DNA of 64,000 bases, from the NCBI GenBank assembly GCA_040752335.1, contig JBFMEV010000011.1, positions 7,465 through 71,464 of the forward strand, given 5' to 3'. The first letter of the stretch is position 1. The number at the start of each line of letters is the position of its first letter. A program made the position numbers and the translations under genes. Shown piece by piece: positions 7,704-50,573 of this stretch. The notes beneath the pieces were generated by a model. That model saw only the letters and a list, made by a program, of their open reading frames with translations. It did not search any database and had not been told where the DNA came from. The stretch is from Chloroflexota bacterium (GTDB taxonomy: Bacteria > Chloroflexota > Limnocylindria > Limnocylindrales > CSP1-4).

Positions 7704-7733
7704 TTGACATGCGATCGGGCCGATTGCTACACT
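7704..7733 (+). promoter_or_regulatory. Candidate strong promoter of the str/S10/spc super-operon: TTGACA-N18-TACACT upstream of rpsL
   Basis: A perfect -35 hexamer at 7704-7709 and -10 TACACT at 7728-7733. It is followed by a ~190-nt GC-rich structured leader before the rpsL GTG at 7931. Confidence 0.45.
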
Positions 7734-19233: not shown

Positions 19234-19785
19234 ATGTCCCGAATCGGCCGTCTGCCCATCCCGGTCCCTGCCGGCGTCGACGTCGAGATCGACGGCCGCC
19301 GCGTGACCGTCAAGGGACCCCGCGGCACGCTCAGCCGGGAGCTCCATCCGGACATGCTCCTCAGCCGCGAGGAGGGGACGTTCGTCGTCGCCCGCCCGAG
19401 CGAGGAGAAGGTCCACAAGCAGCTTCACGGGCTGACCCGGACGCTCGTCAACAACATGGTCGTCGGGGTGACGACGGGCTACCGCAAGGGCCTCGAGATC
19501 ACCGGCGTCGGCTACCGGGCTGCGCTCGTCGGGAAGAAGCTGCAGCTCAACCTGGGCTACAGCCACCAGGTCGAGATCGAGCCGCCCGACGGGATCAGCT
19601 TCGAGGTGGAGAATCCCACCCGGCTGGCCGTCGTGGGCATCGACAAGGAGCTCGTCGGGCAGGTGGCGGCCAAGGTCCGCGCCAGCCGGAAGCCGGAGCC
19701 CTACAAGGGCAAGGGCGTCCGCTACGCCGGCGAGGTGGTCCGCCGCAAGGCCGGCAAGGCCGGCAAGATCGGCGGCAAGAAGTAG
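19234..19785 (+). CDS. rplF: 50S ribosomal protein L6
   Basis: 183 aa, [37 protein letters not shown].... Confidence 0.92.
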
Positions 19786-19794
19786 TGAACGGTC

Positions 19795-19894
19795 GCGCCG
19801 AGATCGGAAGCCAGGGGAGTGCGGCGCCGAGCGCCGGAAACGAGCGCACCCGAGCGTGCGTGAGTGACGGCGCGAAGGCGCCAACGCCGCGATG
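19795..19894 (+). repeat. Dispersed ~100-nt repeat element, copy C, between rplF and rplR
   Basis: CGAGCGCACCCGAGCGTGCGTGAGTGACGGCGCGAAGGCGCCAACGCCGCGATGG aligns base-for-base with copy B's CGAGCGCACTCCAACGTGCGTGAGCGAACGAGCGGACGCGCCAACGCAGGGATGG. The 5' half is also similar. It explains the atypically long 106-nt rplF-rplR gap. Confidence 0.7.
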
Positions 19895-19927
19895 GCTGAT
19901 CAGCGGGGCGCCCCAGGAGTCAGAGGC

Positions 19928-20290
19928 ATGACCACCGTCGCCAGCCGCGGCGCCGCGCGACGCAAGCGCCACGAACGGATCCGCCTCCGCCTGGAGGGAG
20001 ATCCCGGGCGCCCGCGACTCGCGGTCTTCCGCAGCCTCAACCATATCTACGCCCAGGTCATCGACGATTCGACCGGCGAGACGCTGGCCGCCGCGTCCTC
20101 GCTCGAGAAGGAGCTCCGCTCCGGCTCGGGCCCCAAGACGAAGGAGGCAGCCGAGGTCGGGAAGCTCATCGCGGCCCGGGCCCGGTCGGCAGGCATCGAG
20201 CGTGTCGTCTTCGACCGAGCCGGGTTCCGGTATCACGGGCGCGTCAAATCGCTCGCCGACGCGGCCCGTGAGGCCGGACTCGACTTCTGA
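19928..20290 (+). CDS. rplR: 50S ribosomal protein L18 (an alternative ATG at 19892 would add 12 aa)
   Basis: ATG 19928 has an upstream [51 protein letters not shown]... is canonical L18. The ATG at 19892 lies inside a dispersed repeat element and has no SD. Confidence 0.85.
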
Positions 20291-20299
20291 GGAGCTGCC

Positions 20300-20836
20300 G
20301 TGGCACGAATCGATCCCAACAAGCTCGCGCTCGAGGAGCGCGTCGTCCAGATCAACCGGGTCGCCAAGGTCGTCAAGGGCGGCCGGCGCTTCAGCTTCAG
20401 CGCGGTCGTCGTCGTCGGCGATGGCGCGGGCCACGTCGGTGTCGGCCTGGGCAAGGCCGGCGAGGTGCCCGAGGCGATCCGCAAGGGCGTCGAGGACGCC
20501 AAGAAGCACCTCATCCGCATCCCGACCGTGGGGACGACGATCCCGCACGAGGTCCGCCGGGAGTACGCCGCGAGCAGCGTCCTGCTCCGGCCGGCCTCCC
20601 AGGGCACGGGCGTCATCGCCGGCGGGTCAGTCCGGGCGGTCGTCGAATCGGCCGGGATCCGCGACATCCTGACCAAGGTCCACGGCTCCACCAACCCGGT
20701 CAATGTCACCCGGGCGACCCTCGAGGCGCTCAGGATGCTCCACTCGGCCGAGGAGCTCTCGGCCCGGCGTGGCGTTCCGCTGCGCAGCCGGATTGCCGGC
20801 CAGCCGGCTGCGGGGGAGGCCAGCGGTGCCCGGTAG
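20300..20836 (+). CDS. rpsE: 30S ribosomal protein S5
   Basis: 178 aa, ...[53 protein letters not shown]. Confidence 0.92.
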
Positions 20837-21038
20837 GCTGCGCGTCACCCAGGTCAAGAGCACGATCAGCCACATCGCCCGGAACCGGGCCACGATCAAG
20901 GCCCTGGGGCTCCATGGCATCGGCAGCAGCGTCGAGGTCGTCGACAACGAGGCGACCCGGGGCATGGTCCGCCAGGTCCGGTTCCTCGTGACCGTCGAGG
21001 AGATCCCCGCCGCGGCCGGCAAGGAAGACGCGAGATGA
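20826..21038 (+). CDS. rpmD: 50S ribosomal protein L30
   Basis: GTG at 20826 overlaps the rpsE end. [59 protein letters not shown]. Confidence 0.8.
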
Positions 21039-21850
21039 AACTGCACGACCTGAAGCCTGCGCCGGGCTCCCACCGGGCGAAGACCCGCGTCGGTCGCGGC
21101 ATCGCGGCCGGCAAGGGCAAGACCGCCGGGCGTGGGACGAAGGGCCAGAAGGCCCGCGCCGGCGGGGGGATCCCGGCCTGGTTCGAGGGCGGCCAGACGC
21201 CGCTCCACCAGCGGATTCCGAAGCTCCGCGGGTTCAAGAATCCGTTCAAGATCGAGTACGAGGTCGTGAACGTCGGGGCGATCGCCGGCCTGGTCGAGCT
21301 GGGCCTGCTCGAGGCCGGCGAGATGCCCGGCGCCAGGAAGGCCAAGGGCGCCGCCCCGGCGCCGATCACCGTGAACCAGGAGATCCTCCGTGCCGCCGGT
21401 CTCGTCCGGTCGCTCGACAAGCCGATGAAGATCCTCGGCAACGGTGAGATCTCGACGGCCCTGTTCGTCGTCGCCGACCGGATCACCGCCTCCGCCCGGG
21501 CCAAGATCGAGGCCGCCGGCGGCAGCGTCTCGCTGCTGGAGGTTCCGACGCGGGCGATGCCGCCGATCGGTGTCGCCGGCGACCAGGTCGAGGCCGAGGC
21601 CGACGTCGAATCTGTCGCCGCGGTCGAGGCCGTGCCCGAGGCCGCGCCAGAGCTCGAGGCCGCGCCAGAGCTCGAGGCCACGCCCGGGTCCTCCGCCACC
21701 CCGGACGCGGTGTCCGCGCCGAAGCCCGCGACCCGCTCGAGGGCCAGGGCGAAGGCGGCCCCGACCCCGAAGTCCGATCCGACGGTGACCGCACCGGAGG
21801 CCGCGGCCGGCGACACCGCCGCCAGCGCCGATCAGCCCGCGGACGCCTGA
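21035..21850 (+). CDS. rplO: 50S ribosomal protein L15 with a ~125-aa A/P/E-rich C-terminal extension
   Basis: N-terminus [67 protein letters not shown] is canonical L15. The tail contains an 18-bp in-frame tandem (AAPELE x2). Confidence 0.88.
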
Positions 21851-21853
21851 CCG

Positions 21854-23137
21854 GTGTTCGAATCGATCCTCAACGCCTTCCGGGCGCCGGACATCCGGCG
21901 CCGGATCCTGTTCGTCCTCGGGATCCTCGTCGTCTACCGGCTCCTGGCCCAGGTGCCCCTGCCGGGCGTGAACCGCGACGAGCTGGCGAGGTTCTTCGAG
22001 AACAACCAGGGCTTCCAGATCCTGGACCTGTTCGCCGGCGGCGGCCTGTCGTCGTTGTCGATCGTCGGCCTGACGATGAACCCCTACATCAACGCCTCGA
22101 TCATCATGCAGCTGATGCAGGGGGTCATCCCCTCGCTCCAGGCGCTGAGCCGTGAGGGCGAGTACGGCCGCCAGCGGCTGAACCAGTACACGCGCTACCT
22201 GACCGTCCCGATGGCCTTCCTCCAGGCCTTCGGCATCCTGTCGGCGCTGAACGCAAGCGGGATCATCATCGGCGGCTTCGGCCTCGGCAACGCCCTGTCG
22301 TGGGTCCAGATGGTGACGATGGTCGCCGGGGCGGTGGTCCTGATGTGGCTCGGCGAGCTCATCACCGAGAAGGGCATCGGCAACGGCATCAGCTTCATCA
22401 TCTTCGCCGGAATCGTCAGCCGCGCCCCGGCTGCCGTGGGCCAGCTCCTGACCGGTGGCCTGCCCCTTCGGGACATCGTCCTGTTCGCGGTCCTGGCGGT
22501 GGTCGCCGTCGGCGTGATCATCTACATCCAGGAGGGCCAGCGGCGGATCCCGATCCAGTACGCCAGCCGGGTCCGCGGCCGGCGGATGTACCAGGGCGGC
22601 CAGACGTTCCTGCCGCTGCGGGTCAACCTGGCCGGAGTGATCCCGATCATCTTCGCGATCTCGATCCTGCAGTTCCCGGCCCAGCTTGCCCTGTACTTCT
22701 CGTTCTCCACGGTCGAGGGCGTCAGGAACGTGGCCACCGCGATCGCCGGCTTCCTGTCGTCGACGACGATCCAGTACGCGATCATGTACTTCCTGCTGAC
22801 GGTGGGCTTCACATACTTCTACACGGCGTTCACCTTCAAGCCCGACGAGACGGCCGAGCAGCTCCGCAAGAACGGCGGCTTCATCCCCGGCATCCGGCCC
22901 GGCCGACCGACCCAGGACTACCTGGCCCGGGTCGTGTCCCGGATCACGATTGCCGGGGCCCTGTTCCTGGGAACCGTGGCCGTGGGCCCGGTCGTGGCCG
23001 GGGTCCTCGACCCCAACCTCGCCGGCGTCGCCCTCGGCGGCACGGGCCTCCTCATCGTCGTGTCTGTGGTCGTCGAGACGATGAAGCAGATCGAGGCGCA
23101 GCTGATGATGCGCAACTACGAAGGCTTCATCCGATGA
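21854..23137 (+). CDS. secY: Preprotein translocase subunit SecY
   Basis: 427 aa, 10 predicted TM segments. Conserved ...GGLSSLSIVGLTMNPYINASIIMQLM... Spc-operon terminal position. Confidence 0.93.
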   Translation: MFESILNAFRAPDIRRRILFVLGILVVYRLLAQVPLPGVNRDELARFFENNQGFQILDLFAGGGLSSLSIVGLTMNPYINASIIMQLMQGVIPSLQALSREGEYGRQRLNQYTRYLTVPMAFLQAFGILSALNASGIIIGGFGLGNALSWVQMVTMVAGAVVLMWLGELITEKGIGNGISFIIFAGIVSRAPAAVGQLLTGGLPLRDIVLFAVLAVVAVGVIIYIQEGQRRIPIQYASRVRGRRMYQGGQTFLPLRVNLAGVIPIIFAISILQFPAQLALYFSFSTVEGVRNVATAIAGFLSSTTIQYAIMYFLLTVGFTYFYTAFTFKPDETAEQLRKNGGFIPGIRPGRPTQDYLARVVSRITIAGALFLGTVAVGPVVAGVLDPNLAGVALGGTGLLIVVSVVVETMKQIEAQLMMRNYEGFIR

Positions 23138-23151
23138 TTGGGGCGCGCCGC

Positions 23152-23256
23152 CTGGCGGGCCATCGCGGCGTTGCCGCCTGTGCGCGCTCGCTCACGCACG
23201 TTGGAGTGCGCTCGCTCACGTGCTCGGCGGCGCCTTGCGCTGACCTCGCCATCCGG
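23152..23256 (-). repeat. Dispersed ~105-nt repeat element, copy A (inverted relative to copies B and C)
   Basis: Its reverse complement aligns without gaps to 28110..28214 at roughly 80% identity by eye. It shares the core CGCTCGCTCACG-CACGTTGGAGTG-CGCTCGCTCACG and the 5-bp hairpin CGCAC-N6-GTGCG. It occupies the secY-adk spacer. Confidence 0.75.
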
Positions 23257-23309
23257 CGCGCGACCGGCCCCGGATCGCCGGGGCTCGTCGTCCCAGGCGC
23301 GCCGGTGGC

Positions 23310-24011
23310 GTGACCCTCGTCGTTCTCCTCGGCGCACCCGGCGCTGGGAAAGGGACGCAGGCGGCGGTGCTGCGGGACCGCCTTGGGATCCCGCACATCG
23401 CGACGGGCGACCTGTTCCGGGCGGCCGTCCGCGACGCCACGCCGGTCGGTCTCGAGGCCAAGGGCTACATGGACGCGGGCCTGCTCGTCCCCGATGACGT
23501 CACGATCCGGCTCCTCGAGGAGCGCCTCGCCCGACCCGACGCCGCGGCCGGCGCGATCCTCGACGGCTTCCCCCGGACTGCGGTCCAGGCGCAGGCCCTC
23601 GATGCCTTCCTGGCGGGTCGCGGGGGCCGGGTCGATGCCGCGCTCCTCATCGAGGTGCCCGCCGAGGCCCTCGTCGCCCGGTTATCGGGTCGTTGGATCT
23701 GCCGCGCGGCCGGCCATCCCTACCACGAGACGACGAATCCGCCGCGAGTCGCGGGTATCTGCGACCTCGATGGCTCGCCCCTGTACCAGCGCGACGACGA
23801 CCGGCCCGAGACGATCCGGGCCCGCCTGGCGAGCCAGCTGGCCGACCTCGATGCGGTCGTGACCCACTACCGGGCGACCGGCGTCCTCCGCTCGGTGGAC
23901 GGCCTTCGGCCGATCGACGAGGTCTCCGCCGGCCTGCTCGCGGCGCTGGCCGCCCGCTCGGCGACGGGCGCATCCTCGGGCGCGTCCACGGGACGGGCTC
24001 GATCGTGGTGA
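23310..24011 (+). CDS. adk: Adenylate kinase with an extended C-terminus
   Basis: GTG start. P-loop LLGAPGAGKGTQA. LID-region motifs are present. Confidence 0.88.
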   Translation: MTLVVLLGAPGAGKGTQAAVLRDRLGIPHIATGDLFRAAVRDATPVGLEAKGYMDAGLLVPDDVTIRLLEERLARPDAAAGAILDGFPRTAVQAQALDAFLAGRGGRVDAALLIEVPAEALVARLSGRWICRAAGHPYHETTNPPRVAGICDLDGSPLYQRDDDRPETIRARLASQLADLDAVVTHYRATGVLRSVDGLRPIDEVSAGLLAALAARSATGASSGASTGRARSW

Positions 24012-24781
24012 CCCGCAAGTCGCGGCGCGAGATCGAACAGATGCGGCGCGCCGGGCGGGTCGTGGCCGAGGTCCTGGCACTGGTCGAGGAGGAGCTCCGA
24101 CCCGGCGTTTCGACCGGTCGGCTGGACCGCCTGGCCGAGGATCACATCCGGGCCTCGGGCGGCATCCCGTCGTTCAAGGGCTACCTCGGCGGCGGCCGCT
24201 ACGGCCGCGGTCCCAAGGCCTTTCCGGCGAGCACCTGCATCTCGATCGACAGCGAGGTCGTCCACGGCATCCCCGGCGACCGGGTCGTCCGCGACGGCCA
24301 GATCGTCTCGGTCGATGTCGGCGCGATCGTTGACGGCTGGCACGGCGACGCCGCCCGGACCTTCGTCGTCGGGGACGCGTCGCCCGAGGTGACCGAGCTC
24401 GTGACCTCGACCCGGCTGGCCCTGATGGCCGGGATCCGCGCCTCGGTCGCCGGCAATCGCATCGGCGACATCTCGGCGGCGGTCGAGGACATCGGCCGCG
24501 AGCATGGTTACGGGATCGTCCGCCAGTTCGTCGGCCACGGCATCGGGACCGAGATGCACCAGGACCCCCAGGTCCCGAACTACCGGACCGGCGCGCGGGG
24601 GATCGAGCTCCAGCCAGGCATCTGCCTGGCCATCGAGCCGATGTTCACCCTCGGCGGCGACGAGGTCGCGGTCCTGCCCGACCTCTGGACCGTGGTCACG
24701 GCCGACGGCTCGCTGGCAGCCCACTTCGAGCACACGATCGCCGTGACGGACAATGGCCCGGAGATCCTGACGAGTGTCTGA
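24005..24781 (+). CDS. map: Methionine aminopeptidase type I
   Basis: GTG 24005 overlaps the adk stop. VVTRKSRREIEQMRRAGRVVAEVL... and FVGHGIGTEMHQDPQVPNY are MetAP motifs. About 258 aa. Confidence 0.88.
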   Translation: MVTRKSRREIEQMRRAGRVVAEVLALVEEELRPGVSTGRLDRLAEDHIRASGGIPSFKGYLGGGRYGRGPKAFPASTCISIDSEVVHGIPGDRVVRDGQIVSVDVGAIVDGWHGDAARTFVVGDASPEVTELVTSTRLALMAGIRASVAGNRIGDISAAVEDIGREHGYGIVRQFVGHGIGTEMHQDPQVPNYRTGARGIELQPGICLAIEPMFTLGGDEVAVLPDLWTVVTADGSLAAHFEHTIAVTDNGPEILTSV

Positions 24782-24797
24782 GGGCGCTCGCCGCCGG

Positions 24798-24827
24798 TTG
24801 CCGGAACAACAGCAGTTCTGATACGCT
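24798..24827 (+). promoter_or_regulatory. Candidate internal sigma-70-like promoter upstream of infA (TTGCCG-N17-ATACGCT)
   Basis: Hexamer-like elements with 17-nt spacing lie in the 109-nt map-infA gap. This is a sequence-only prediction. Confidence 0.3.
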
Positions 24828-24890
24828 ACGCGTTCGTGTGTCGGCCCGCCGGGCCGGCACTCGCCGTGAGAAAGGGACACACCACCGCCC

Positions 24891-25109
24891 GTGGCCAAGC
24901 GAGACGCGATCGAAGTCGAAGGGACGGTCCTCGAGCCGCTCCCGAACACCATGTTCGCGGTCGAGCTGGAGAACGGCCACCGCGTGCTGGCCCACATCTC
25001 CGGCAAGCTCCGGATGAACTTCATCCGGATCCTGCCGGGCGACCGAGTCAGGGTCGAGCTGTCGCCGTACGACCTGACCCGCGGTCGGATCACGTACCGA
25101 CTGAAGTAA
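24891..25109 (+). CDS. infA: Translation initiation factor IF-1
   Basis: 72 aa, GTG start. [70 protein letters not shown]. Confidence 0.92.
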
Positions 25110-25169
25110 GAGCATCGTTCGGCCGCCCCCGCCCCGGCGGTGGCCGAACCCACAGGCACCGAGGATCCG

Positions 25170-25283
25170 TTGAAAGTCAGAGCTTCCATCAAGGCGCGCT
25201 GCGACAACTGCAAGGTGATTCGCCGCCACGGGACCGTGATGGTCATCTGCACCAACCCGAAGCACAAGCAGCGGCAGGGATAG
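25170..25283 (+). CDS. rpmJ: 50S ribosomal protein L36 (37 aa, zinc-ribbon form). The short ORF is not in the supplied track
   Basis: Manual translation from TTG 25170: (M)[36 protein letters not shown], stop TAG 25281-25283. Canonical position between infA and rpsM. Confidence 0.8.
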
Positions 25284-25289
25284 CAGCCG

Positions 25290-25667
25290 ATGGCACGAAT
25301 CGCCGGCGTCGACATTCCCCGCGAGAAGCGGGTCGAGGTCGCCCTCACCTACATCTACGGAATCGGGCTGCCCACCGCCCAGAAGATCCTCACCCAGACC
25401 AACGTCAACGCCGACACCCGGGTCCGGGACCTCACGGAGGAGCAGGTCAACCGCCTTCGCGAGCTCATCGACCGGCGCTACAAGGTGGAGGGCGATCTTC
25501 GCCGCGAGGTGGCGCTCAACGTCAAGCGACTGATCGAGATCGGCTCGTACCGCGGCCTCCGCCATCGGCGGAACCTGCCGGTTCGGGGCCAGCGAACCAA
25601 GACGAATGCCCGGCAGCGGCGCGGACCCAAGCGGACGGTCGGCGCACGACGCAAGGCGACGAAGTAG
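25290..25667 (+). CDS. rpsM: 30S ribosomal protein S13
   Basis: 125 aa, [34 protein letters not shown].... Confidence 0.92.
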
Positions 25668-25688
25668 TGACGAGGTACAGCAGGACGC

Positions 25689-26084
25689 ATGGCTGAGCGG
25701 AAGCGGGCCGTCAGGCAGCGTCGTCGGGAGCGGAAGAACGTCCCCCAGGGGCACGTCCACGTCCAGGCGTCGTTCAACAACACGATCATCACGATCACCG
25801 ATCCGGCCGGGGCCGTGATCAGCTGGGGCTCCGCCGGCGTGGCCGGCTTCAAGGGCTCTCGCAAGAGCACGCCCTACGCCGCCGCCATGTCGGCCGACAT
25901 CGCCGCCCGCAAGGCGATGGAGCACGGCATGCGTCAGGTCGAGGTCTACGTGAAGGGTCCCGGCGCCGGTCGGGAGCAGGCCATCCGCTCGCTCCAGACG
26001 GCCGGCCTGGAGGTCACCGCGATCACCGACGTCACGCCCATCCCGCACAACGGCTGCCGCCCGCCCAAGCGGCGCCGGGTCTGA
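25689..26084 (+). CDS. rpsK: 30S ribosomal protein S11
   Basis: 131 aa, ...[45 protein letters not shown].... Confidence 0.92.
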
Positions 26085-26098
26085 GGGGAGGCGATCGC

Positions 26099-26725
26099 AT
26101 GGCCCGCTACACAGGATCCGTCTGCCGGCTCTGCCGCCGCGAGGGCACCAAGCTGTTCCTCAAGGGCACCCGCTGCTACACCAAGAAGTGCGCCTTCGAG
26201 CGCCGCCCCAGCCCGCCCGGCCAGCACGGCGTTCGGCGCCGCAAGATGGGTGACTTCGGCATCCAGCTGCGCGAGAAGCAGAAGGTCCGCCGCGTCTACT
26301 CCGTCCTCGAGCGGCAGTTCCGCAACTACTTCGTCGAAGCCGGCAACCGCGAGGGCGTGACCGGCGAGAACCTCCTCCGGTTCCTCGAGACCCGCCTCGA
26401 CAACGTCGTCTTCCGGCTCGGCTTCGCGACCTCTCGGGCCCAGGCCCGCCAGCTCGTGGCCCACGGCCACTTCGCGGTCAACGGCACGCCGACCGACGTC
26501 CCGTCGTTCGAGGTCAAGCCCGGCGACCGGATCGAGGTCCGCGAGTCGCGCCGCGATCGCGAGCCGTTCAAGCTCGCCAAGGAGACGCTCCGGTCCCACC
26601 AGGCCCCGGAGTGGCTCAGCCTGGAGCCGGCCCGCCTGGCGGGCTCCGTCCTCAGCCTGCCCCGCCGCGACCAGATGCCGCTCGACCTCAACGAGCAGCT
26701 CGTGGTCGAGTTCTACTCGAGGTAA
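26099..26725 (+). CDS. rpsD: 30S ribosomal protein S4
   Basis: 208 aa, MARYTGSVCRLCRREGTKLFLKGTRCYTKKCAFERR... with a zinc finger. Confidence 0.92.
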   Translation: MARYTGSVCRLCRREGTKLFLKGTRCYTKKCAFERRPSPPGQHGVRRRKMGDFGIQLREKQKVRRVYSVLERQFRNYFVEAGNREGVTGENLLRFLETRLDNVVFRLGFATSRAQARQLVAHGHFAVNGTPTDVPSFEVKPGDRIEVRESRRDREPFKLAKETLRSHQAPEWLSLEPARLAGSVLSLPRRDQMPLDLNEQLVVEFYSR

Positions 26726-26734
26726 CCCGAACCC

Positions 26735-27736
26735 ATGATCGAACTCGAGAGCCCGCAGATCGAGCCCGTCGAGGAAGTCGGCACGTACGCCAAGTACGAG
26801 GCCGGCCCTCTCCAGGCCGGCTACGGCGTCACCCTCGGCAACGCGCTCCGGCGTGTCCTCCTGTCGTCGCTCGAGGGTGCCGCGGTCACGTCCATCCAGA
26901 TCCGGGACGTGTACCAGGAGTTCTCGACGATCCCGGGCGTCAAGGAGGACGTCACCCAGATCGTCCTGAACGTCAAGAAGCTGCGCCTCAAGAGCTTTGC
27001 GACCCATCCCGTCCAGCTGAGGATCACCAAGAGCGGCGCCGGCCCGGTCCTGGCCGCCGACCTCATGGAGTCGGCCGACGTCGAGATCGTCAACCCGGAC
27101 CTGGTCCTCATGACCCTCGACTCGGACGACGTGACGATCGAGATGGACCTGACCGTCGAGCGCGGCGTGGGCTACCTCGGCGCGGAGCGCTCCGAGGCCC
27201 TCCCGATCGGGGTCATCGCCGTCGACGCCATCTTCACCCCGGTCCGGAAGGTCAACTACTGGGTCGAGAGCATGCGCGTCGGCCAGGTCACGAACTTCGA
27301 CAAGCTGACGATCGAGATCGAGACGGACGGCACGATCGGCCCGGAGGAGTCGCTGAGCCGCGCGGCCGGGATCCTGGTCGAGCAATTCCGACCGTTCATC
27401 ACCATCGGCCAGGCGGCGATGCCCGGCGATCGAGCCGGGGCCGGCGTCCCGCAGCTCCCGCCGAACATGCTCGACATGCCGATCGAGGAGCTCGACCTGC
27501 CGATGCGGGCCTACAACTCGCTGAAGCGCAACAACATCGTCAAGGTCGGCCAGCTCCTCCAGCTCAAGGATGACGACCTGCTCCGGATGCGCAACTTCGG
27601 CAAGAAGTCGCTCGACGAGATGAAGGAGCGCCTCCGGATGCGCGGCTTCATCCTGCCCGAGACCGAGCCATCGGCCTTCGAGGGCGACGGCGAGCTCGAC
27701 GGGGTCGACGTCGAGGCCGAGGCCGAGGACGCCTGA
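26735..27736 (+). CDS. rpoA: DNA-directed RNA polymerase alpha subunit
   Basis: 333 aa. NTD ...YGVTLGNALRRVLLSSLEGAAVTSIQI. CTD ...LDLPMRAYNSLKRNNIVKVGQLLQLKDDDLLRMRNFGKKSLDE. Confidence 0.93.
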   Translation: MIELESPQIEPVEEVGTYAKYEAGPLQAGYGVTLGNALRRVLLSSLEGAAVTSIQIRDVYQEFSTIPGVKEDVTQIVLNVKKLRLKSFATHPVQLRITKSGAGPVLAADLMESADVEIVNPDLVLMTLDSDDVTIEMDLTVERGVGYLGAERSEALPIGVIAVDAIFTPVRKVNYWVESMRVGQVTNFDKLTIEIETDGTIGPEESLSRAAGILVEQFRPFITIGQAAMPGDRAGAGVPQLPPNMLDMPIEELDLPMRAYNSLKRNNIVKVGQLLQLKDDDLLRMRNFGKKSLDEMKERLRMRGFILPETEPSAFEGDGELDGVDVEAEAEDA

Positions 27737-27737
27737 C

Positions 27738-28091
27738 ATGGCGCACCGCGTCGATGGTCGAAAGCTCAGCCGCAAGACGGGCCCGCGACTGGCCCTCTTC
27801 AAGAACCTGACCGTCTCGGTCCTCCGCTACGAGCGGATCAAGACGACCGAGGCCAAGGCCAAGGAGGTCCAGGGCCGCGTCGAGCGGGTGATCACGCTCG
27901 CGAAGCAGGGGGACCTTGCGGCACGTCGCCGGGTCGTCTCGGAGTTCCCGAACGAGCCGCTCGTCGTGACCAAGCTGTTCGACGAGATCGCCCCGAAGTA
28001 CGCCGATCGGACGTCCGGCTACACCCGGATCGTCAAGATCGGCCAGCGCTCGGGCGACGCCGCCGAAATCGTTCAAATCGAGCTGGTGTAA
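27738..28091 (+). CDS. rplQ: 50S ribosomal protein L17
   Basis: 117 aa, MAHRVDGRKLSRKTGPRLALFKNLTVSVLRYERIKTTEAKAKEV.... Confidence 0.92.
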   Translation: MAHRVDGRKLSRKTGPRLALFKNLTVSVLRYERIKTTEAKAKEVQGRVERVITLAKQGDLAARRRVVSEFPNEPLVVTKLFDEIAPKYADRTSGYTRIVKIGQRSGDAAEIVQIELV

Positions 28092-28109
28092 TTGGCACGC
28101 TGAGCAGGT

Positions 28110-28214
28110 CGTCGTCGCTGGGCCGAGGTCAGCCCAAGGCGGCGCGGAGCACGCGAGCGAGCGCACTCCAACGTGCGTGAGCGAACGAGCGGACGCGCCA
28201 ACGCAGGGATGGCC
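28110..28214 (+). repeat. Dispersed ~105-nt repeat element, copy B, between rplQ and truA; its 3' end contains the truA ATG
   Basis: Gap-free alignment to the reverse complement of 23152..23256 and to 19795..19894. It ends ...GCGCCAACGCAGGGATGGCCCGG. Confidence 0.75.
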
Positions 28215-29018
28215 CGGCTGAGCGACGACCCAACTGGCGCCCGAGAGGGCGCCCCGACGCGCTATGTCGCGACGGTTGAATACGACGGCACGGACTTTGC
28301 CGGGTTCCAGCTTCAACCTGGGGCCCGGACCGTCCAGGGGGCGCTGGAGGCGGCGCTGGCCACTCTCTCGGGAGGGGTCCGGCAGCCCGTCGACGGCGCC
28401 GGTCGGACGGACGCCGGGGTCCACGCGACGGGGCAGGTCATCGCCTTCTCCTACGCGGGGCGCCTCTCGGCGGCCGAGCTGACCGAGGCCCTCAACGGCC
28501 TGCTCCCGCCGGATGTCGCGGTACGCGACGTCCGACAGGCAGCCCGGGGCTTCCACCCTCGCTACGCGGCGCGGTACCGGGAGTACCGCTACACCGTCTG
28601 GAACGGGCCGCGGAGCCCGCTCCGGGAGCGCACGGCGCTCCGGGTGCGGACCCCCCTGGACGTGGACGCGATGGCGCGAGCCGCGACGGCCTTCGAGGGC
28701 CGGCACGACTTCAGCGCCTTCGGCGGGGCCGATCCGCAGCCGATCCGGACCGTCCATCGGGTCCGGGTCCGGCGGCGGGGCGACCTCGTCGAGATCGACG
28801 TCCGGGCCGACGCCTTTCTGCGAGGGATGGTCCGGCGGATGGTCGCCGCTCTCCTAGCGGTGGGGGCGGGCAGGCAAGATGAGCGAGCGGTCGTCGCGGC
28901 CCTGGCCGAACGACGACCGGCCCTCGACGGGGCAGCCGCCCCGGCGAAGGGGCTGTGCCTCCGCCGCGTCGTCATGGGACGGGGCGAACGGAGCAACGGA
29001 GAGAACGAGGAACGATGA
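28209..29018 (+). CDS. truA: tRNA pseudouridine(38-40) synthase
   Basis: ...[21 protein letters not shown]... and the catalytic-region [16 protein letters not shown] are present. ATG 28209 is the only canonical in-frame start besides GTG 28173, which lies inside the repeat hairpin. Confidence 0.85.
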
Positions 29019-29446
29019 ACGCCAAGACCTACACGGTCCGGGAGAGCGAGATCGAGCGACGCTGGTTCGTCGTGGACGCGACGGGCCAGACCCTCGGCCG
29101 CCTCGCGACCCAGGTCGCCCGTGTTCTCTCGGGCAAGCACAAGCCGACCTACACCCAGCACCTCGACACCGGCGACCACGTGATCGTCCTGAACGCTTCG
29201 AAGGTGGCGGTCAGCCGCGACAAGGTGGAGAGCAAGCTCTACATCCGCCACAGCGGCCACCCCCAGGGCTACAAGGAGGAGTCGCTCGGCAAGCTCCTGG
29301 AGCGCCGGCCGGAGGAGGTCGTCCGGCGGGCCGTCAAGGGCATGCTGCCGCGAACGCGGCTGGGGGCCCAGCAGCTCAGGAAGCTCAAGATCTACGCCGG
29401 CAACGATCATCCCCATCAGGCCCAGCGGCCTGAGCCGCTCGCCTGA
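29015..29446 (+). CDS. rplM: 50S ribosomal protein L13
   Basis: ATG 29015 overlaps the truA stop. [47 protein letters not shown]... 143 aa. Confidence 0.92.
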
Positions 29447-29463
29447 CGGAGGAGCCAGCGACG

Positions 29464-29862
29464 ATGTCCACGCCCACCTTCAACTCCGGCACCGGCCGCC
29501 GCAAGACCGCCGTTGCCCGTGTCCGTCTCCTGCCCGGCGAGGGCGAGATCGTCGTCAACGGCCGCTCGCTCGCCGAGCATTTCGGGAACGCCATCGACGA
29601 GGCCGACGTCCGCCTGCCGTTCCGGGTCACCGGCACGGAGGGCCGCTTCAACGCCATGATCAAGATCGAGGGTGGCGGTGTCACCGGCCAGGCCGGCGCC
29701 ATCCGCCACGGCATCGCCCGGGCCCTCCTGGAGCTCGATCCCGACGGCCACCGGCTGCCGCTCCGCCAGGCCGGCCTCCTGACCCGCGATCCGCGGATGA
29801 AGGAGCGCAAGAAGTACGGGCTCAAGCGGGCCCGCAAGGCCCCCCAGTACACCAAGCGGTAG
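29464..29862 (+). CDS. rpsI: 30S ribosomal protein S9
   Basis: 132 aa, ...[27 protein letters not shown]...[17 protein letters not shown]. Confidence 0.92.
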
Positions 29863-29884
29863 TCGCCGCCGGCTGACGGCCGAC

Positions 29885-29915
29885 CGCGTGCGTTTGCAGC
29901 CCGCACGCGCTCGCT
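29885..29915 (+). terminator. Candidate intrinsic terminator hairpin after rpsI (8-bp stem CGCGTGCG/CGCACGCG, 9-nt loop, no U-tract)
   Basis: Inverted repeat read directly from the sequence, 23 nt after the rpsI stop. The absence of a U-tract is common in high-GC genomes but lowers confidence. Confidence 0.3.
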
Positions 29916-29933
29916 TGACCCCGTCCTGGCCGA

Positions 29934-30020
29934 TTTCATCCCGCTCCTCGACGCGACCGTCGCAGCGTGCGCCGAGCACGTGGCGAATCGCGTTACGCTC
30001 GTCCCATGGCTGGCGACGGC
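29934..30020 (+). repeat. Probable internally deleted copy D of the same element, upstream of and overlapping the start of a hypothetical ORF
   Basis: The 5' part GCGCCGAGCACGTGGCGAATCGCG resembles copy B's GCGCGGAGCACGCGAGCGAGCGCA. The 3' part CCATGGCTGGCGACGGC resembles GGATGGCCCGGCTGAGCGACGAC. The central hairpin is missing. Confidence 0.4.
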
Positions 30021-30275
30021 CCAGTGCAACGAACCGGACTCCTGGTCCACCACACCTATGACTTCGGTCCAATGGTGCACTTCGTGTTCAGGTGCCGCGG
30101 GCGGGACCGGCTCGATCAGGTCGCCGCCTCGATGGAGGTCAGTGACGCTCGTTTCTGGCTCCTCGGCGACCTCCCCACGCCCATCTCGGACTTCACGGAG
30201 CGTCGCATCCGGGATGCTGTTCTCGAGGGCCCGGTCCACGTCGAGCGCGTCGCCAGCCGCCAGTGGCGAGACTGA
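30006..30275 (+). CDS. Hypothetical protein, ~89-102 aa; start is either ATG 30006 or GTG 29967
   Basis: ORF 29967..30275. Its composition is balanced (MAGDGPVQRTGLLVHHTYDFGPMVHFVFRCRGRDRLDQVAASMEV...), unlike the R/S/P-rich overlapping alternative frame. It fills an otherwise empty 497-nt rpsI-argF gap. No recognisable family, no clear SD. Confidence 0.4.
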   Translation: MAGDGPVQRTGLLVHHTYDFGPMVHFVFRCRGRDRLDQVAASMEVSDARFWLLGDLPTPISDFTERRIRDAVLEGPVHVERVASRQWRD

Positions 30276-30359
30276 CCGAATGGGATCACCAGGACTGCGG
30301 TCTCACCTTCGCCCTCGACGATCAGCTGGTGGCACGCCTCGCACCGCTACAGTTCTGGA

Positions 30360-31328
30360 ATGAGTGACAAGCCCGACGCGACGTTGCCCCTCCGCGGGAG
30401 GGATCTGCTCAGCGCGGGTGACCTGACCCCCGACGAGGTCCGGCGCGTGTTCGCGACGGCTGCGGCCCTCAAGGCCGAGTTTCTGGTAGCGCGGCGGCAC
30501 GAGCGGCCGCCGCTCGTGCGGCGGACGCTGGCGATGCTCTTCGAGCGGCCGAGCCTGCGGACCCGGGTGACGTTCGAGGCCGGGATGCTCCAGCTCGGCG
30601 GCGGGGCCATCCAGCTGACCTCCGGCAACGTCGGCTGGGGCGAGCGGGAATCGGTCGCCGATGTCGCTCGGAACCTCCAGGCGTTCGTCGACGCGATCGT
30701 CATCCGGACCGGCCACCACGAGATCGCCGTGGAGCTCGCGGCCGCCGCCGACGTTCCCGTCATCAACGCCCTGACCCTCCACGAGCATCCCTGCCAGGCC
30801 CTGGCCGACGTCTTCACGCTGCGGGAGGCGTTCGGGCGCCTCGAGGGGCTCGTGGTGACCTTCGTCGGTGACGGCAACAACGTCTTCCACTCGCTGGCAC
30901 TGGTCGCCGCCGGCCAGGGGATCGAGGTCCGGCTCGCCCATCCGGACGGCTACGGCCCGGACCCGGCGGTGGTCGCCATGGCCGAAAGGCTGGCCGCCAC
31001 GAGCGGTGCCCGGGTCGCCATCGGGCGAGATCCGCGCGAGCTCGTGGCCGGGGCGGACGTCATCTACACCGACGCCTGGACATCGATGGGCCAGGAAGCC
31101 GAGGCCGACGAGCGGCGCGTCGCGTTCGCTGGGTACCGGGTCGACGAGACGCTCTGCGCGGCGGCCGGGCCGGGGGCGCGGGTGATGCACTGCCTCCCGG
31201 CGCACCGCGGCGAGGAGATCACGTCCGAGGTGATGGACGGGCCGCGGAGCCTCATCTTCCGCCAGTCGGAGAATCGCCTCCACGTCCAGAAGGGCCTCCT
31301 CGTCGAGCTGCTCGGCGACCCGGGGTAG
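30360..31328 (+). CDS. argF: Ornithine carbamoyltransferase
   Basis: 322 aa. Carbamoyl-phosphate site FERPSLRTRVTFE. C-terminal HCLPAHRGEE (HCLP motif) indicates OTCase rather than ATCase. Confidence 0.8.
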   Translation: MSDKPDATLPLRGRDLLSAGDLTPDEVRRVFATAAALKAEFLVARRHERPPLVRRTLAMLFERPSLRTRVTFEAGMLQLGGGAIQLTSGNVGWGERESVADVARNLQAFVDAIVIRTGHHEIAVELAAAADVPVINALTLHEHPCQALADVFTLREAFGRLEGLVVTFVGDGNNVFHSLALVAAGQGIEVRLAHPDGYGPDPAVVAMAERLAATSGARVAIGRDPRELVAGADVIYTDAWTSMGQEAEADERRVAFAGYRVDETLCAAAGPGARVMHCLPAHRGEEITSEVMDGPRSLIFRQSENRLHVQKGLLVELLGDPG

Positions 31329-46089: not shown

Positions 46090-46728
46090 ATGACGGTTGA
46101 TGACCTGTCCGAGGTCCACCGGATCGAGCGGGCGAGCTTCAGCGTGCCGTGGCCGGACGACGCCTATCGCAGCGAGCTCGTGGCCAACCGGCTGGCGTCG
46201 TATCTCGTCGTCCGGGTCGATGGCCAGGCCGGGATCATCGCCTACGGCGGGATCTGGCTGATGGTTGACGAGGCCCACATCACCACCTTCGCGGTCGATC
46301 CTGCCTGGCGCCGCCAGGGGGTGGGGGAGACGCTCCTCACGGCGCTCCTCGACCTGGCCGTGGCCCGTCACGCCCGGGAAGCGACGCTCGAGGTCCGGCT
46401 GTCCAACCTTCCGGCCCGGCGCCTCTATGAGAAGTACGGCTTCCGGCCGGTCGGCCTCAGGCCGCGCTACTACTCCGACAACGGCGAGGATGCCCTGATC
46501 ATGACCACCGAGCCGCTGACCGGCGGTTCGATGCGAGGGCGCCTCGCCGCTCTCCGCGCGGCGCTCGAGGCGGCGCCGCCGCCGTCGGGTCCCGCCGAGA
46601 TCGCCGGGCCGGGATCGCCCGGTGGGGCGATCGAGCCGCCCGGTGGCGCGATCGAGCCGCCCGGTGGCGCGATCGACCCGCCCGGCGCTCGGCCGCTGGC
46701 CCCGCGCGGCCCCGGTCCACGCTCGTGA
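46090..46728 (+). CDS. rimI: Ribosomal-protein-alanine N-acetyltransferase with a C-terminal (PGGAIEP)x3 repeat tail
   Basis: GNAT motifs ...AVDPAWRRQGVGETLL... and ...YEKYGF. A 21-bp in-frame tandem lies at 46618..46690. The start could instead be ATG 46051, which overlaps tsaB. Confidence 0.8.
   Translation: MTVDDLSEVHRIERASFSVPWPDDAYRSELVANRLASYLVVRVDGQAGIIAYGGIWLMVDEAHITTFAVDPAWRRQGVGETLLTALLDLAVARHAREATLEVRLSNLPARRLYEKYGFRPVGLRPRYYSDNGEDALIMTTEPLTGGSMRGRLAALRAALEAAPPPSGPAEIAGPGSPGGAIEPPGGAIEPPGGAIDPPGARPLAPRGPGPRS
46618..46690 (+). repeat. 21-bp tandem repeat x3.3 (CCCGGTGGCGCGATCGAGCCG) inside the rimI 3' end
   Basis: The copies are directly visible at 46618-46638, 46639-46659 and 46660-46680, with a partial fourth. 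They encode PGGAIEP repeats. Confidence 0.9.
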
Positions 46729-49770: not shown

Positions 49771-50150
49771 CCCGGCAGGCGGTCTCGACATCGGGCGCCC
49801 CGGCGGCCATCGGGCCGTACAGCCAGGGGATCGCCAGCGCCGATCTCGTGTTCTGCTCTGGCCAGCTCGGCCTGGACCCCACGACGGGCGAGCTGGCCCC
49901 GGGGGTCGAGGCCCAGGCCGAGCGTGCCCTCCGGAACCTCGCCGCGGTCCTCGATGCCGCGGGCTGCTCCTGGGGCGATGTCGTGAGGACGACGATCTAC
50001 CTGGCCGACATCGGCGACTTCGGTGCGGTCAACGGCATCTACGCCCGGTTCATGCCGGACCCACCGCCGGCCCGCTCGACGTTCGCCGTCGGGGCGCTGC
50101 CGAAGGGCGGCCTCGTCGAGATCGACGCCATCGCCTGCCGCAGGAGGTGA
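49767..50150 (+). CDS. ridA: RidA/YjgF-family reactive intermediate deaminase
   Basis: ATGA overlap with ispE. ...APAAIGPYSQGIASADLVFCSGQLGLDPTTGEL... and ...ARSTFAVGALPKGGLVEIDAIA. Confidence 0.85.
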   Translation: MTRQAVSTSGAPAAIGPYSQGIASADLVFCSGQLGLDPTTGELAPGVEAQAERALRNLAAVLDAAGCSWGDVVRTTIYLADIGDFGAVNGIYARFMPDPPPARSTFAVGALPKGGLVEIDAIACRRR

Positions 50151-50235
50151 CCGTCGCCTGCCGCAGGAGGTGACCGTCGCCTGCCGCAGGAGGTGACCTT
50201 CGCCCGCCGCAGAAGGTGACCTTCGCCCGCCACCC
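50131..50235 (+). repeat. 23-bp tandem repeat x~4.5 (TCGCCTGCCGCAGGAGGTGACCG), each copy containing GGAGGTGA; it begins inside the last codons of ridA
   Basis: Copies at 50131-53, 50154-76, 50177-99 and 50200-22 (degenerate), plus a partial copy at 50223-35. A related motif recurs at about 50412-50440 (CCGGAAGGTGACGGCTTTCGGCC). Confidence 0.9.
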
Positions 50236-50573
50236 CGGCGTGTCATTGGCTGCCAGTCACAGAAACGTGCGTCGGCTTGCCGCCCGGGCCGCTCAGGCCG
50301 CGGTTCGGCTCGCTTGCATGTCTGGTGGTCACTGAACCCTGCGCAAATGACCACGGCGCCTCTGGCCCGGCCTGGCAGGCCGGACTTCCCGGGCCGGCCG
50401 TCGCGTTTCGGCCTGACACACCGGAAGGTGACGGCTTTCGGCCCCGCCGCTGCACCAAACCGGCCCCCCGAGCCGAACCGCGGCATAGCGGGTCGGAATT
50501 CCGGCGTGTGGGTCCGGGCGCCGCTTCCCGGATCTCCACAAGAGAGGCTACGTCACTCAGCGCCGGCCCTCGA

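Follow-up and report, generated by a model that had tools for sequence, protein, structure and literature searches.

The REP unit measures 20–40 nt. A REPIN combines two REPs in inverted orientation, and these two units are what is conserved in it; REPINs form hairpins comparable in length to those of the repeat family described here, and REPs are typically associated with a RAYT (Y1 HUH) gene that is flanked by REPs. Mycobacterial MIRUs are intercistronic repeats inside the operons of a high-GC bacterium, with ends that overlap both the stop and the start codons of flanking genes; they are sometimes found in tandem, consist of direct tandem units with small coupled ORFs, lie in a single orientation and are not long palindromes. 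Bacterial MITEs of 100–200 bp form long stem-loops with A-G mispairs, and their reading frames can fuse to host genes (PMC2229807). Table 1 of PMC2229807 lists ERIC with TA termini, a target-site duplication and terminal inverted repeats that are short; an orientation-dependent effect on mRNA stability has also been reported for it (PMC2229807). The Correia/NEMIS elements of Neisseria are hairpin-forming intergenic repeats of 100–155 bp that are co-transcribed with their neighbours and whose RNA hairpins are substrates of RNase III (PMC2229807).

We analysed a 64,000-nt stretch (the window) of contig JBFMEV010000011.1 from a Chloroflexota bacterium of the Limnocylindria, in which a sequence-only reading had noticed a dispersed repeat in the ribosomal-protein operon. 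Limnocylindria are Chloroflexota that abound in soil and freshwater and for which MAGs are almost the sole source of knowledge; no description of their repeat content was found in the searchable literature. The repeat probably represents a new ERIC/REP/MITE-like family, characteristic of Limnocylindria, which puts a large hairpin into operon transcripts.

Copies in the ribosomal-protein operon

Copies had been claimed in the rplF|rplR, secY|adk (inverted) and rplQ|truA gaps, and all three were recovered at these places by inverted-repeat search, nhmmer and a covariance model, measuring about 120–130 nt rather than the ~100 nt first given. Copy C (19784–19917, plus strand) lies between rplF and rplR with its purine-rich ('GA') strand in the operon sense, and contains the apical core at 19841–19864 and the element ATG at 19892–19894; it scored 69.9 bits with the covariance model (nhmmer E = 4e-28) and folds into a single long hairpin (-54.6 kcal/mol, z = -3.4). 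Copy A (23137–23268, minus strand; apical core 23191–23214) runs against the operon direction within the secY|adk gap, where the last base of the secY stop codon (23135–23137) is its first base, and it scored 105.7 bits (nhmmer E = 1.5e-29) with a fold of -61.3 kcal/mol (z = -4.8). Copy B (28104–28234, plus strand; apical core 28158–28181) is again in the sense orientation, between rplQ and truA, with 109.8 bits and an nhmmer E of 2.5e-30. The covariance model was built on 122 family members and run on the window with filters off, and its next-best match after these three reached 17 bits; nhmmer likewise found only copies A, B and C in the window, with no other match below E = 0.6. A/B (93 nt, 87% complementary) and C/A (56 nt, 84%) are the two longest inverted repeats of the window, and pairwise identity among the three copies is 61–73% across about 130–140 aligned nt, rising to 74–85% in the central 80 nt. 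The hairpin core, the two direct boxes and the ...CAACGC-NNN-G-ATGGC tail were seen as originally described, and the flanking genes named then (L6|L18, SecY|Adk, L17|TruA and S9|ORF) agree with Pfam.

A fourth copy, proposed at 29934–30020 (plus strand), shows no detectable family membership, being missed by the 3-copy HMM, the 122-copy HMM and the covariance model. Its local alignment with copy B scored 47, compared with 33 +/- 7.4 for random 141-mers (95th percentile 45.5). The claim that this copy starts a hypothetical ORF is unsupported, since the region is no detectable family member. A possible decayed, internally deleted inverted remnant takes its place directly after rpsI (29886–29919, minus strand), where GCGTGCGTT and CGCGCTCGCT align to the first arm of intact inverted copies found in the orthologous S9|argF gap of L037, L088 and L008. 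The covariance model gave 9.3 bits on the minus strand at 29857–29976 (E = 7, not significant alone), and 29886–29919 is at most such a remnant.

The repeat family explains otherwise puzzling long gaps in very compact operons. That it fills every long gap was an overstatement: in a survey of gaps of at least 100 nt, based on an independent gene call on the window, rpoB|rpoC (103 nt), rpoC|rpsL (277 nt) and map|infA (109 nt) carry no copy. The 180-nt infA|rpsM gap is occupied by rpmJ.

Dispersal, gain and loss

An exact-core scan with a 24-nt seed, covering one genome per species, returned at least 118 loci, nearly all of them from Chloroflexota MAGs (Candidatus Limnocylindria/Limnocylindrales), and viral contigs gave 0 matches to the element. 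Homology extends over about 80–110 nt, well past the seed, in 108 of the 118 loci listed, and the 934 kb of sampled loci (8-kb blocks around pattern matches) hold at least 132 exact-core copies. Among the matches listed, about 95% of copies are intergenic, and 106 classifiable copies fall into at least 73 distinct sites, 60 of the 73 being found in one genome only. The 73 sites listed comprise 52 co-directional (33 antisense and 19 sense), 16 convergent and 5 divergent ones, and two sites have mixed orientation. In either half of the set (215 neighbours), the neighbouring genes come from over 120 unrelated Pfam families. Tandem arrays of near-identical copies were found at four loci (L030, L097, L041 and L050).

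Thirteen sites are common to more than one species, and some of them are deeply shared, namely secY|adk and, as a separate case, an antisense site with 12 copies (8 loci). Recurrent Pfam neighbours, counted over the whole set rather than assigned to individual sites, include pyrophosphatase with DnaB-like helicase, ATP synthase subunits, RecA with RecX, and ArgJ with amino-acid kinase; SecY/Adk, S9/OTCase and IF-2/RbfA are further housekeeping neighbours.

Orthologous gaps of relatives' operons are filled in some species and empty in others. The secY|adk gap holds inverted copies in the window, L014, L074 and L008 and is empty in L027, where the genes overlap in GTGA; rplF|rplR is filled in the window and empty in L014 and L074; rplQ|truA has a sense copy in the window, L027 and L088, an inverted one in L083 and none in L008. 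The data show dispersal of the element, either way round, into numerous unrelated gaps between genes, together with gain or loss of copies where orthologous gaps are compared, and tandem amplification; they uphold the MITE/REP-like interpretation offered by the sequence-only reading.

Marks of a particular transposition mechanism were sought at several levels. When the 215 neighbours were taken in two halves, the 25 commonest Pfam families of each half included no Y1_Tnp, transposase or RAYT-like gene, and tblastn of the 934 kb with an IS200 TnpA query (an approximate sequence) gave no match below E = 1. The copies have no conserved terminal inverted repeats, the termini being the variable part in an arm-swap test. 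Flanking 5-mers match in 11% of copies compared with 2.8% in the control, with no consistent motif, and RTGA stands on both sides of the secY|adk insert in four species, for which selection keeping stop and start codons is an equally possible cause. Identity between copies is 79.7% at the same site in different species and 78.7% at different sites, with flanking proteins about 70–85% identical; on this sequence comparison, the equality points to constraint towards the consensus or to homogenisation, and a functional motif would likewise give it.

Although some of these observations, and the sites shared between species, speak against it, we favour as explanation a non-autonomous mobile element, present or former, of the ERIC/REP/MITE type that, in very compact operons, would survive only in intercistronic gaps. 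An inserted element would be co-transcribed and would form a very stable hairpin in the polycistronic mRNA, often only a few nucleotides away from the upstream stop codon. An effect at the mRNA level is something we purely infer: the hairpin might act as a decay barrier, as a processing site (of RNase III or RNase E type) or as a translation brake, and might thereby uncouple the expression of neighbouring cistrons. The processing role proposed here has a precedent in the Correia elements, as substrates of RNase III. Should the hairpins indeed lead to processing or stabilisation of mRNA, they would offer a simple way into operon expression in a class that is uncultured. The family could also serve to mark the lineage, both in binning and, along the lines of ERIC-PCR, in the typing of strains.

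The hairpin and the flanking genes

The element forms an imperfect palindrome, about 120 nt long (about 121 nt as a hairpin), whose apex is conserved: GAGCGAGCGCAC-N5-7-GTGCGTGAGCGAG. Its apical stem is almost invariant (GCGCAC / GTGCGT) and is flanked on either side by two symmetric tandem G.A mismatches (GA-GC-GA), with the conserved motifs CAAGGCG on the 5' side and CAACGC on the 3' side. The basal and outer stems vary in sequence from copy to copy while complementarity is kept: the outer arms are about 66% identical between copies compared with about 79% in the central 80 nt, and a copy's own arms pair to a median of 57–58 nt from the loop, whereas pairing stops at 6 nt when arms are swapped between copies. 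Paired cells amount to 90.4% against 75.5% in shuffles (0/500 shuffles reach 90.4%), and both-side changes to 313 cells against 113 (0/500). The covariation score was 0.327, compared with 0.105 for shuffles and no more than 0.064 when the 3' partners were slid, and 13 of the 20 stem pairs show compensatory changes, which supports the hairpin structure. Such covariation is not RNA-specific, since a single-stranded DNA hairpin or arm-to-arm correction of a palindrome is expected to give the same signal. No reading frame is conserved across the family, and the arm indels are not multiples of three. An invariant apex combined with variable yet complementary termini is unusual. Classical MITEs show the opposite pattern, and the family could therefore spread or be recognised in another way.

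The sequence-only reading had offered a reused cis-regulatory RNA as the alternative to insertion. On this account the element is a conserved cis-acting RNA module rather than selfish DNA, served by a dedicated RNA-binding protein or nuclease and setting the expression of adjacent cistrons relative to one another in housekeeping operons. Consistent with it are the strong stem covariation, the central 80 nt being about 75–85% identical whatever the site or species, the recurrence of sites across species with many housekeeping neighbour families, and the position of the hairpin base next to stop codons (in 60% of co-directional copies its distance from the upstream stop is 15 nt or less, with a median of 1 nt for antisense copies). 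It fits less well with the mixture of orientations in a single operon, where C and B are sense and A is antisense, and even between species at the orthologous L17|truA gap. The 60 singletons among the 73 sites listed and the tandem arrays also speak against it, as does the ratio of G.T to A.C mismatches, which is 0.40 in sense and 0.40 in antisense copies, indicating that the structure is not tuned to the transcribed strand. We regard this account as unlikely. A wider version, which we rate as quite unlikely, is class-wide operon punctuation, in which the apical hairpin would be recognised by a dedicated nuclease or binding protein that cuts or insulates transcripts and sets cistron stoichiometry; such a module would work either way round because it is palindromic, and it would serve dozens of housekeeping operons, possibly including the ribosomal, ATP synthase, recA-recX and arginine-biosynthesis clusters.

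Action at the DNA level, with transcription irrelevant, would make the element a cruciform or a binding site for a protein such as a nucleoid protein or topoisomerase, for which the E. coli BIMEs are a model, or a replication-associated or HUH-type single-stranded DNA hairpin. Placement is largely orientation-independent when each site counts once (33 antisense vs 19 sense, p = 0.07), the mismatches are unequally divided between the strands (about 1000 G.A cells on one strand), and the near-invariant apical stem, whose rare variants show no compensation, suggests sequence-specific recognition. We nevertheless consider this very unlikely, as the copies are scarce in divergent promoter regions and concentrated at 3' ends and in gaps within operons (5 divergent vs 16 convergent sites), the pattern that a transcript-level constraint or effect would give; a strict replication-strand rule is excluded by both orientations occurring within 10 kb.

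In 92 of 123 copies the purine-rich strand gives a more stable fold than the complementary one, and among the matches listed it runs antisense to the flanking genes in 56 of the 82 copies that are co-directional. Both results would suit small RNA genes of about 120 nt that are transcribed on their own, many of them in the antisense direction of the host operon. This account is highly improbable, given that the consensus has no promoter-like or terminator-like feature, that copies adjoin or overlap gene ends and that the orientation bias is not significant after sites are collapsed. Nor does the element match an Rfam family: Rfam 15 gave no hit in the whole window at gathering thresholds and, at E up to 5, none on the elements within 19700–30400.

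The element ATG had been thought to donate start codons to neighbouring genes, which is plausible for truA and contradicted for L18. In the truA reading frame, the only canonical starts upstream of the conserved N-terminus are GTG 28173 and ATG 28209–28211, both inside copy B. Comparison of orthologous gaps and their translations placed the truA GTG start of the relatives L027 and L088 (M-R-Y-R-A-R-V-E-Y-D-G) at an ACG codon in the window (28257–28259, plus strand), upstream of which is a Shine-Dalgarno-like GAGAGGG motif; the element ATG of copy B lies within the outer stem, without a good Shine-Dalgarno sequence. With ACG in place of the relatives' GTG, and the sole canonical starts inside copy B, a truA start at the element ATG is plausible from the sequence. 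For rplR, the likely true start is ATG 19928–19930 (plus strand), with AGGAG (19915–19919) 8 nt upstream, and the L18 orthologues in L074, L014 and L067 begin M-T at its equivalent, making the proposed 12-aa extension of L18 unlikely; the Pfam L18p match starts at residue 18 of the extended ORF.

Of the 27 sense-oriented copies among the matches listed, only 3 have their element ATG at the called gene start. In the stem, the T of this ATG forms a pair whose two members covary (A-U in 72 of 122 copies); the ATG thus arises as a by-product of the structure, and start-codon donation by the elements is incidental. A neighbouring gene could occasionally capture the ATG near the element's 3' end, and truA may be such a case. 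C-terminal ends of genes overlap the element in L069 and L044. Gene callers should beware both of false N-terminal extensions (L18) and of real capture of starts or stops (possibly truA, and these C-terminal overlaps).

Comparison with known repeat families

In contrast to cis-regulatory RNAs of the Rfam type, the family matches no curated family and keeps no constant orientation, although covariation is present. Like MIRUs it is intercistronic and sometimes tandem, with ends that overlap stop and start codons, but it is a long palindrome. It resembles bacterial MITEs of the Correia, ERIC or RUP type in being small, non-coding and dispersed in many copies, with filled and empty orthologous sites, but lacks conserved terminal inverted repeats common to the copies; of the Correia features, the conserved 24-bp terminal inverted repeats, the TA duplication and the IHF site of the long form were not seen. 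With REP/BIME and REPIN-RAYT systems it shares the nature of an extragenic palindrome found mostly at 3' ends or inside operons, able to form hairpins as single strands, as well as long evolutionary persistence and REP-type placement (about 95% intergenic; 52 co-directional, 16 convergent and 5 divergent sites listed). It differs from them in being one hairpin of about 120 nt with a conserved apex and no visible pair of separable REP units, and no RAYT-like gene occurs among the 25 most frequent Pfam families per half of the 215 neighbours of the at least 118 loci.

By analogy, ERIC/IRU (127 bp) is the closest functional and anatomical counterpart. The two have no sequence similarity and belong to different phyla, and the new family has variable termini without a consistent duplication, its conserved part being the hairpin apex rather than the ends. 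Both, however, measure about 120–130 nt, form one long imperfect hairpin with internal mismatches, and occupy transcribed intergenic regions inside operons in either orientation, with a sequence conserved across species.

Three repeat copies in the ribosomal super-operon

The window has a G+C content of 71.5% and carries rpoB-rpoC and the str/S10/spc/alpha ribosomal super-operon from 1 to about 30000, as assigned from an ORF list, a GC3-based gene call and Pfam searches of the ten genes beside the reported elements. A repeat search of the window returned two inverted repeats at the top by length, one of 93 nt (23156-23248 with 28124-28216, 87% complementary) joining the inverted element between secY and adk (copy A) to that between rplQ and truA (copy B), and one of 56 nt (84%) joining copy A to the element between rplF and rplR (copy C). 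An HMM built from the three copies regained each of them at E = 1e-28 to 1e-30, with no further match in the window below E = 0.6. A covariance model, built from 122 family members and run on the window with filters off, scored copy B (28104-28234, + strand) at 109.8 bits, copy A (23137-23268, - strand) at 105.7 bits and copy C (19784-19917, + strand) at 69.9 bits, the best score elsewhere in the window being 17 bits. The three full-length copies of the sequence-only reading are thus recovered by all three methods. The fourth copy that it placed at 29934-30020 (copy D) was missed by this HMM, by a second HMM from 122 copies and by the covariance model, which rule it out as a family member; its best local alignment to copy B scored 47, compared with 33 +/- 7.4 for random 141-mers of the window.

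That every unusually long gap in the operon is filled by the repeat was overstated, since in our gene call on the window the gaps rpoB|rpoC (103 nt), rpoC|rpsL (277 nt) and map|infA (109 nt) contain no copy. The 180-nt infA|rpsM gap is mostly explained by rpmJ (L36, 25170-25283, TTG start), which occupies most of it and goes unlisted where ORF lists are cut off at 50 aa. Inside the rpoC|rpsL gap lies a sigma-70-like promoter, TTGACA-N18-TACACT (7704-7733), suggesting that the str operon has its own promoter and that canonical -35 and -10 boxes are in use in this organism. In the stretch that separates copy A from the adk start, a small G+C-rich hairpin, GGCCCCGG-ATCG-CCGGGGC (23266-23285), stands outside the repeat consensus and is followed by no T-run.

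Two features elsewhere in the window were also recorded. At 50128-50242, a 23-nt unit, CCGTCGCCTGCCGCAGGAGGTGA, is repeated head to tail four to five times (98-70% identity); the array lies at an ORF end and extends into a 537-nt gap, each unit carrying GGAGGTGA, a Shine-Dalgarno-like motif with a stop codon. ARAGORN predicted a tRNA-Gly (TCC) of 91 nt at 46520-46610, long for a glycine tRNA, which could reflect an insertion, an intron or an over-extended prediction.

A lineage-wide hairpin family

The sequence-only reading took the elements for members of a dispersed family, and further copies were indeed found. GTDB representative genomes, one for each species, were scanned with 18 specified apex bases, CGAGCGCAC-N6-GTGCGTGAG; at least 118 loci matched, against a few tens of chance matches over the whole collection by our rough estimate, and among the matches listed similarity runs 80-110 nt beyond the seed in 108 of 118 loci. 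Nearly all the matches listed are MAGs labelled Candidatus Limnocylindria/Limnocylindrales, Chloroflexota or 'uncultured Chloroflexia', and in eleven of the loci the encoded ribosomal proteins show 70-97% identity to those of the window, which very probably belongs to a member of this class; its Adk and S9 proteins have no identical entry on record. Four loci (L030, L097, L041 and L050) hold tandem arrays of near-identical copies. These data establish a new family of hairpin repeats, ~120 nt in length and lineage-wide. The elements match no Rfam 15 family, either at gathering thresholds over the entire window or at E up to 5 over 19700-30400, excluding a known RNA family as their identity, and a literature search on repeats in the class Limnocylindria found none. 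The apex pattern has no match in 2.9 million viral contigs, which rules out a phage origin.

Some matches carry labels from outside this lineage. Three loci in MAGs labelled Solirubrobacterales or Actinomycetes (L021, L086 and L099) have the apical core in common but a different body, TGCGAGCGCAC-TGAATT-GTGCGTGAGC...GGACGCCG; they may have matched by chance or belong to a related repeat family of Actinobacteriota. Bins labelled Eisenbacteria (L034, L106) and Methylomirabilota (L053) hold a few good matches, which may come from mis-binned contigs.

Single copies fold into one long imperfect hairpin with energies of -50 to -61 kcal/mol per ~105 nt and z down to -4.8. Its apex reads GAGCGA-GCGCAC-loop-GTGCGT-GAGCGA, in which an apical stem of 6 bp with one G.T pair is flanked by two symmetric tandem G.A mismatches with a GC/GC step between them; the two direct CTCGCTCACG boxes described earlier are this motif as read on the opposite strand. 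Outside the apex, each arm has a conserved motif, CAAGGCG in the 5' and CAACGC in the 3' one, with the basal stem beyond both. In the 123 copies measured, the two arms of a copy stay paired up to a median of 57-58 nt away from the loop, so that the hairpin is ~121 nt long, whereas pairing ends at 6 nt when the 3' arm is exchanged for that of another copy. The basal half thus keeps its complementarity inside each copy and varies in sequence from copy to copy. An apparent pairing to ~85 nt, seen as palindrome extent with free end gaps, is an alignment artefact, as anchored analyses give ~54-58 nt.

RNAalifold on the 122-copy alignment predicted 20 pairs, 13 of which show compensatory changes. 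Paired cells amount to 90.4%, compared with 75.5% in column shuffles, and both-side changes to 313 cells compared with 113 (0/500 shuffles reaching the observed value in either case); the covariation score of 0.327 falls to 0.105 on shuffling and to 0.064 or less with the 3' partners displaced by 1-3 columns. The hairpin is thus kept up by compensatory change. The inner stem is invariant by construction, its sequence having served as search seed; seven incidental copies without the exact seed have loops of 5-7 nt and carry single variants in this stem, with no compensating change.

In 92 of 123 copies the better fold belongs to the purine-rich strand, which sets the orientation of a copy, rather than to its complement. 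Wobble pairs are no guide to the folded strand: an unbiased count gave 396 G.T and 591 A.C mismatches along with ~1000 G.A, and the G.T share is 0.40 in sense and antisense copies alike. Two outer columns at first appeared to favour the purine-rich strand, but the unbiased count singles out neither strand. The equal G.T share indicates that the structure belongs to the element itself and is not adapted to the direction in which its site is transcribed. The pyrimidine-rich strand was also considered for a small conserved ORF spanning the element (ATG...TGA), which was rejected because no more than about half of the copies have CAT at that position and the frame is broken by indels in the arms.

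Placement and turnover between genes

About 95% of 129 copies are intergenic, and the few 'intragenic' ones are overlaps with gene termini in which a reading frame runs into the element. Two such frames, for a molybdopterin-binding oxidoreductase subunit (L069, 2800-2916) and a cytochrome b (L044, 4274-4418), overrun their last Pfam domain by 30-45 codons and end inside an element copy, which seems to supply a C-terminal tail and stop codon.

The purine-rich strand is antisense rather than sense to co-directional neighbours in 56:26 raw copies (p = 0.001). Counting copies with homologous neighbours once reduced 106 copies to 73 sites, of which 33 are antisense, 19 sense (p = 0.07), 16 convergent and only 5 divergent, so that a strong antisense bias does not hold per orthologous site. 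A strict replication-strand rule also fails, both orientations being found within 10 kb. In 60% of co-directional copies no more than 15 nt separate the hairpin base from the upstream stop codon (median 1 nt for antisense copies), and in 65% of sense copies the same limit holds for its distance to the downstream start. The 215 neighbour genes, tallied over the whole set and not site by site, match 121 and 122 Pfam families in its two halves and are mostly housekeeping genes; frequent families are pyrophosphatase with DnaB-like helicase, ATP synthase subunits, RecA with RecX, ArgJ with amino-acid kinase, SecY with Adk, and S9 with OTCase. Transposases are absent from the 25 most frequent families listed per half.

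Comparison with orthologous operons revealed both filled and empty gaps. The secY|adk gap holds an inverted copy in the window, L014, L074 and L008, with RTGA flanking the insert on both sides in all four, and the genes overlap (GTGA) in L027. The rplF|rplR gap is filled in the window and L067 and measures 2 nt in L014 and ~27 nt in L074; rplQ|truA holds a sense copy in the window, L027 and L088, an inverted one in L083 and none in L008; and rpmD|rplO is filled in L074 only. Intact inverted copies occupy rpsI|argF in L008, L088 and L037, and the window there has GCGTGCGTTTGCAGCCCGCACGCGCTCGCTTGAC only, at 29886-29919, which aligns with their first arm and looks like an internally deleted remnant of an inverted copy, a match not significant alone. 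As a separate observation, the window's rplO (L15) frame (21035-21850) encodes 271 aa, almost double the usual length; relatives align over its first 180-243 residues only, and the C-terminal extension contains 18-nt repeats, GAGGCCGCGCCAGAGCTC (~21620-21680).

Identity over the central 80 nt is 79.7% for same-site copies from different species and 78.7% for copies from different sites, with flanking proteins only ~70-85% identical. Each copy is held near one consensus in a star-like pattern, which could be due to sequence-specific selection, homogenisation between copies or repeated replacement. Such uniform conservation keeps alive the main rival to a mobile repeat, a functional punctuation hairpin recognised in trans; this rival is weakened by the mixed orientations, opposite even between species at two sites, by the tandem arrays, and by the singleton sites, 60 of the 73 being found in one genome only and 13 being common to several species or holding several copies.

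Start codons and the nature of the element

The sequence-only reading held that the elements donate start codons to genes. The T of the element ATG takes part in a stem pair that covaries and is A-U in 72 of 122 copies; an ATG stands at that place in only about half of the family, and it is the called start in 3 of 27 sense-oriented copies. For L18 the ATG of copy C (19892) is not needed, as orthologues in L074, L014 and L067 begin, with M-T, where the window has ATG 19928, and an AGGAG stands 8 nt upstream of this codon. For truA the claim is plausible. In L027 and L088 the gene starts at GTG-CGC-TAT (M-R-Y-R-A-R-V-E-Y-D-G) downstream of a GAGAGGG motif; the corresponding window codon is ACG (28257-28259), and no ATG, GTG or TTG occurs in frame between it and copy B. 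The only canonical truA starts, ATG 28209 and GTG 28173, are therefore inside copy B. Capture of an element-borne start is nonetheless plausible rather than proven, because ATG 28209 is base-paired and lacks a good Shine-Dalgarno sequence; the alternative is a near-cognate start at the ACG behind a conserved Shine-Dalgarno sequence. Overall, such donation is an occasional side effect.

Immediately ahead of truA, or within its start, a small hairpin with a GNRA-type loop, GGCGCCC-GAGA-GGGCGCC (28236-28253), has its core, CCCGAGAGGG, kept at the nucleotide level in L027, L083 and L008, the L088 version being divergent; L083 shows a compensatory stem change (TCACCC/GGGTGA). Its spacing to the conserved VEYDG codons is no multiple of three, and with this conservation it resembles a non-coding RNA feature or a Shine-Dalgarno-presenting structure more than coding sequence. 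The truA of L083 (2050-2302, minus strand) has no in-frame ATG, GTG or TTG between the upstream stop and RVEYDG, possibly owing to a non-canonical start or an assembly error.

The repeats are intergenic, lie in both orientations at many independent sites, form tandem arrays and are gained and lost at orthologous gaps. The MITE/REP-like reading put forward from the window is the best supported, and we infer a non-autonomous element of the ERIC/REP/MITE kind that is mobile now or was so in the past. Unlike a classical MITE, the family has variable termini, no consistent target-site duplication at its copies and, among the most frequent neighbour families, no transposase nearby. Once inserted beside stop codons, an element would set a large hairpin into a polycistronic mRNA, where it might affect the host by blocking decay, by serving as a processing site or by slowing translation. 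A host effect through an mRNA hairpin has likewise been described for ERIC and Correia/NEMIS (PMC2229807); the family itself appears to be undescribed so far, and the kind of element is familiar.
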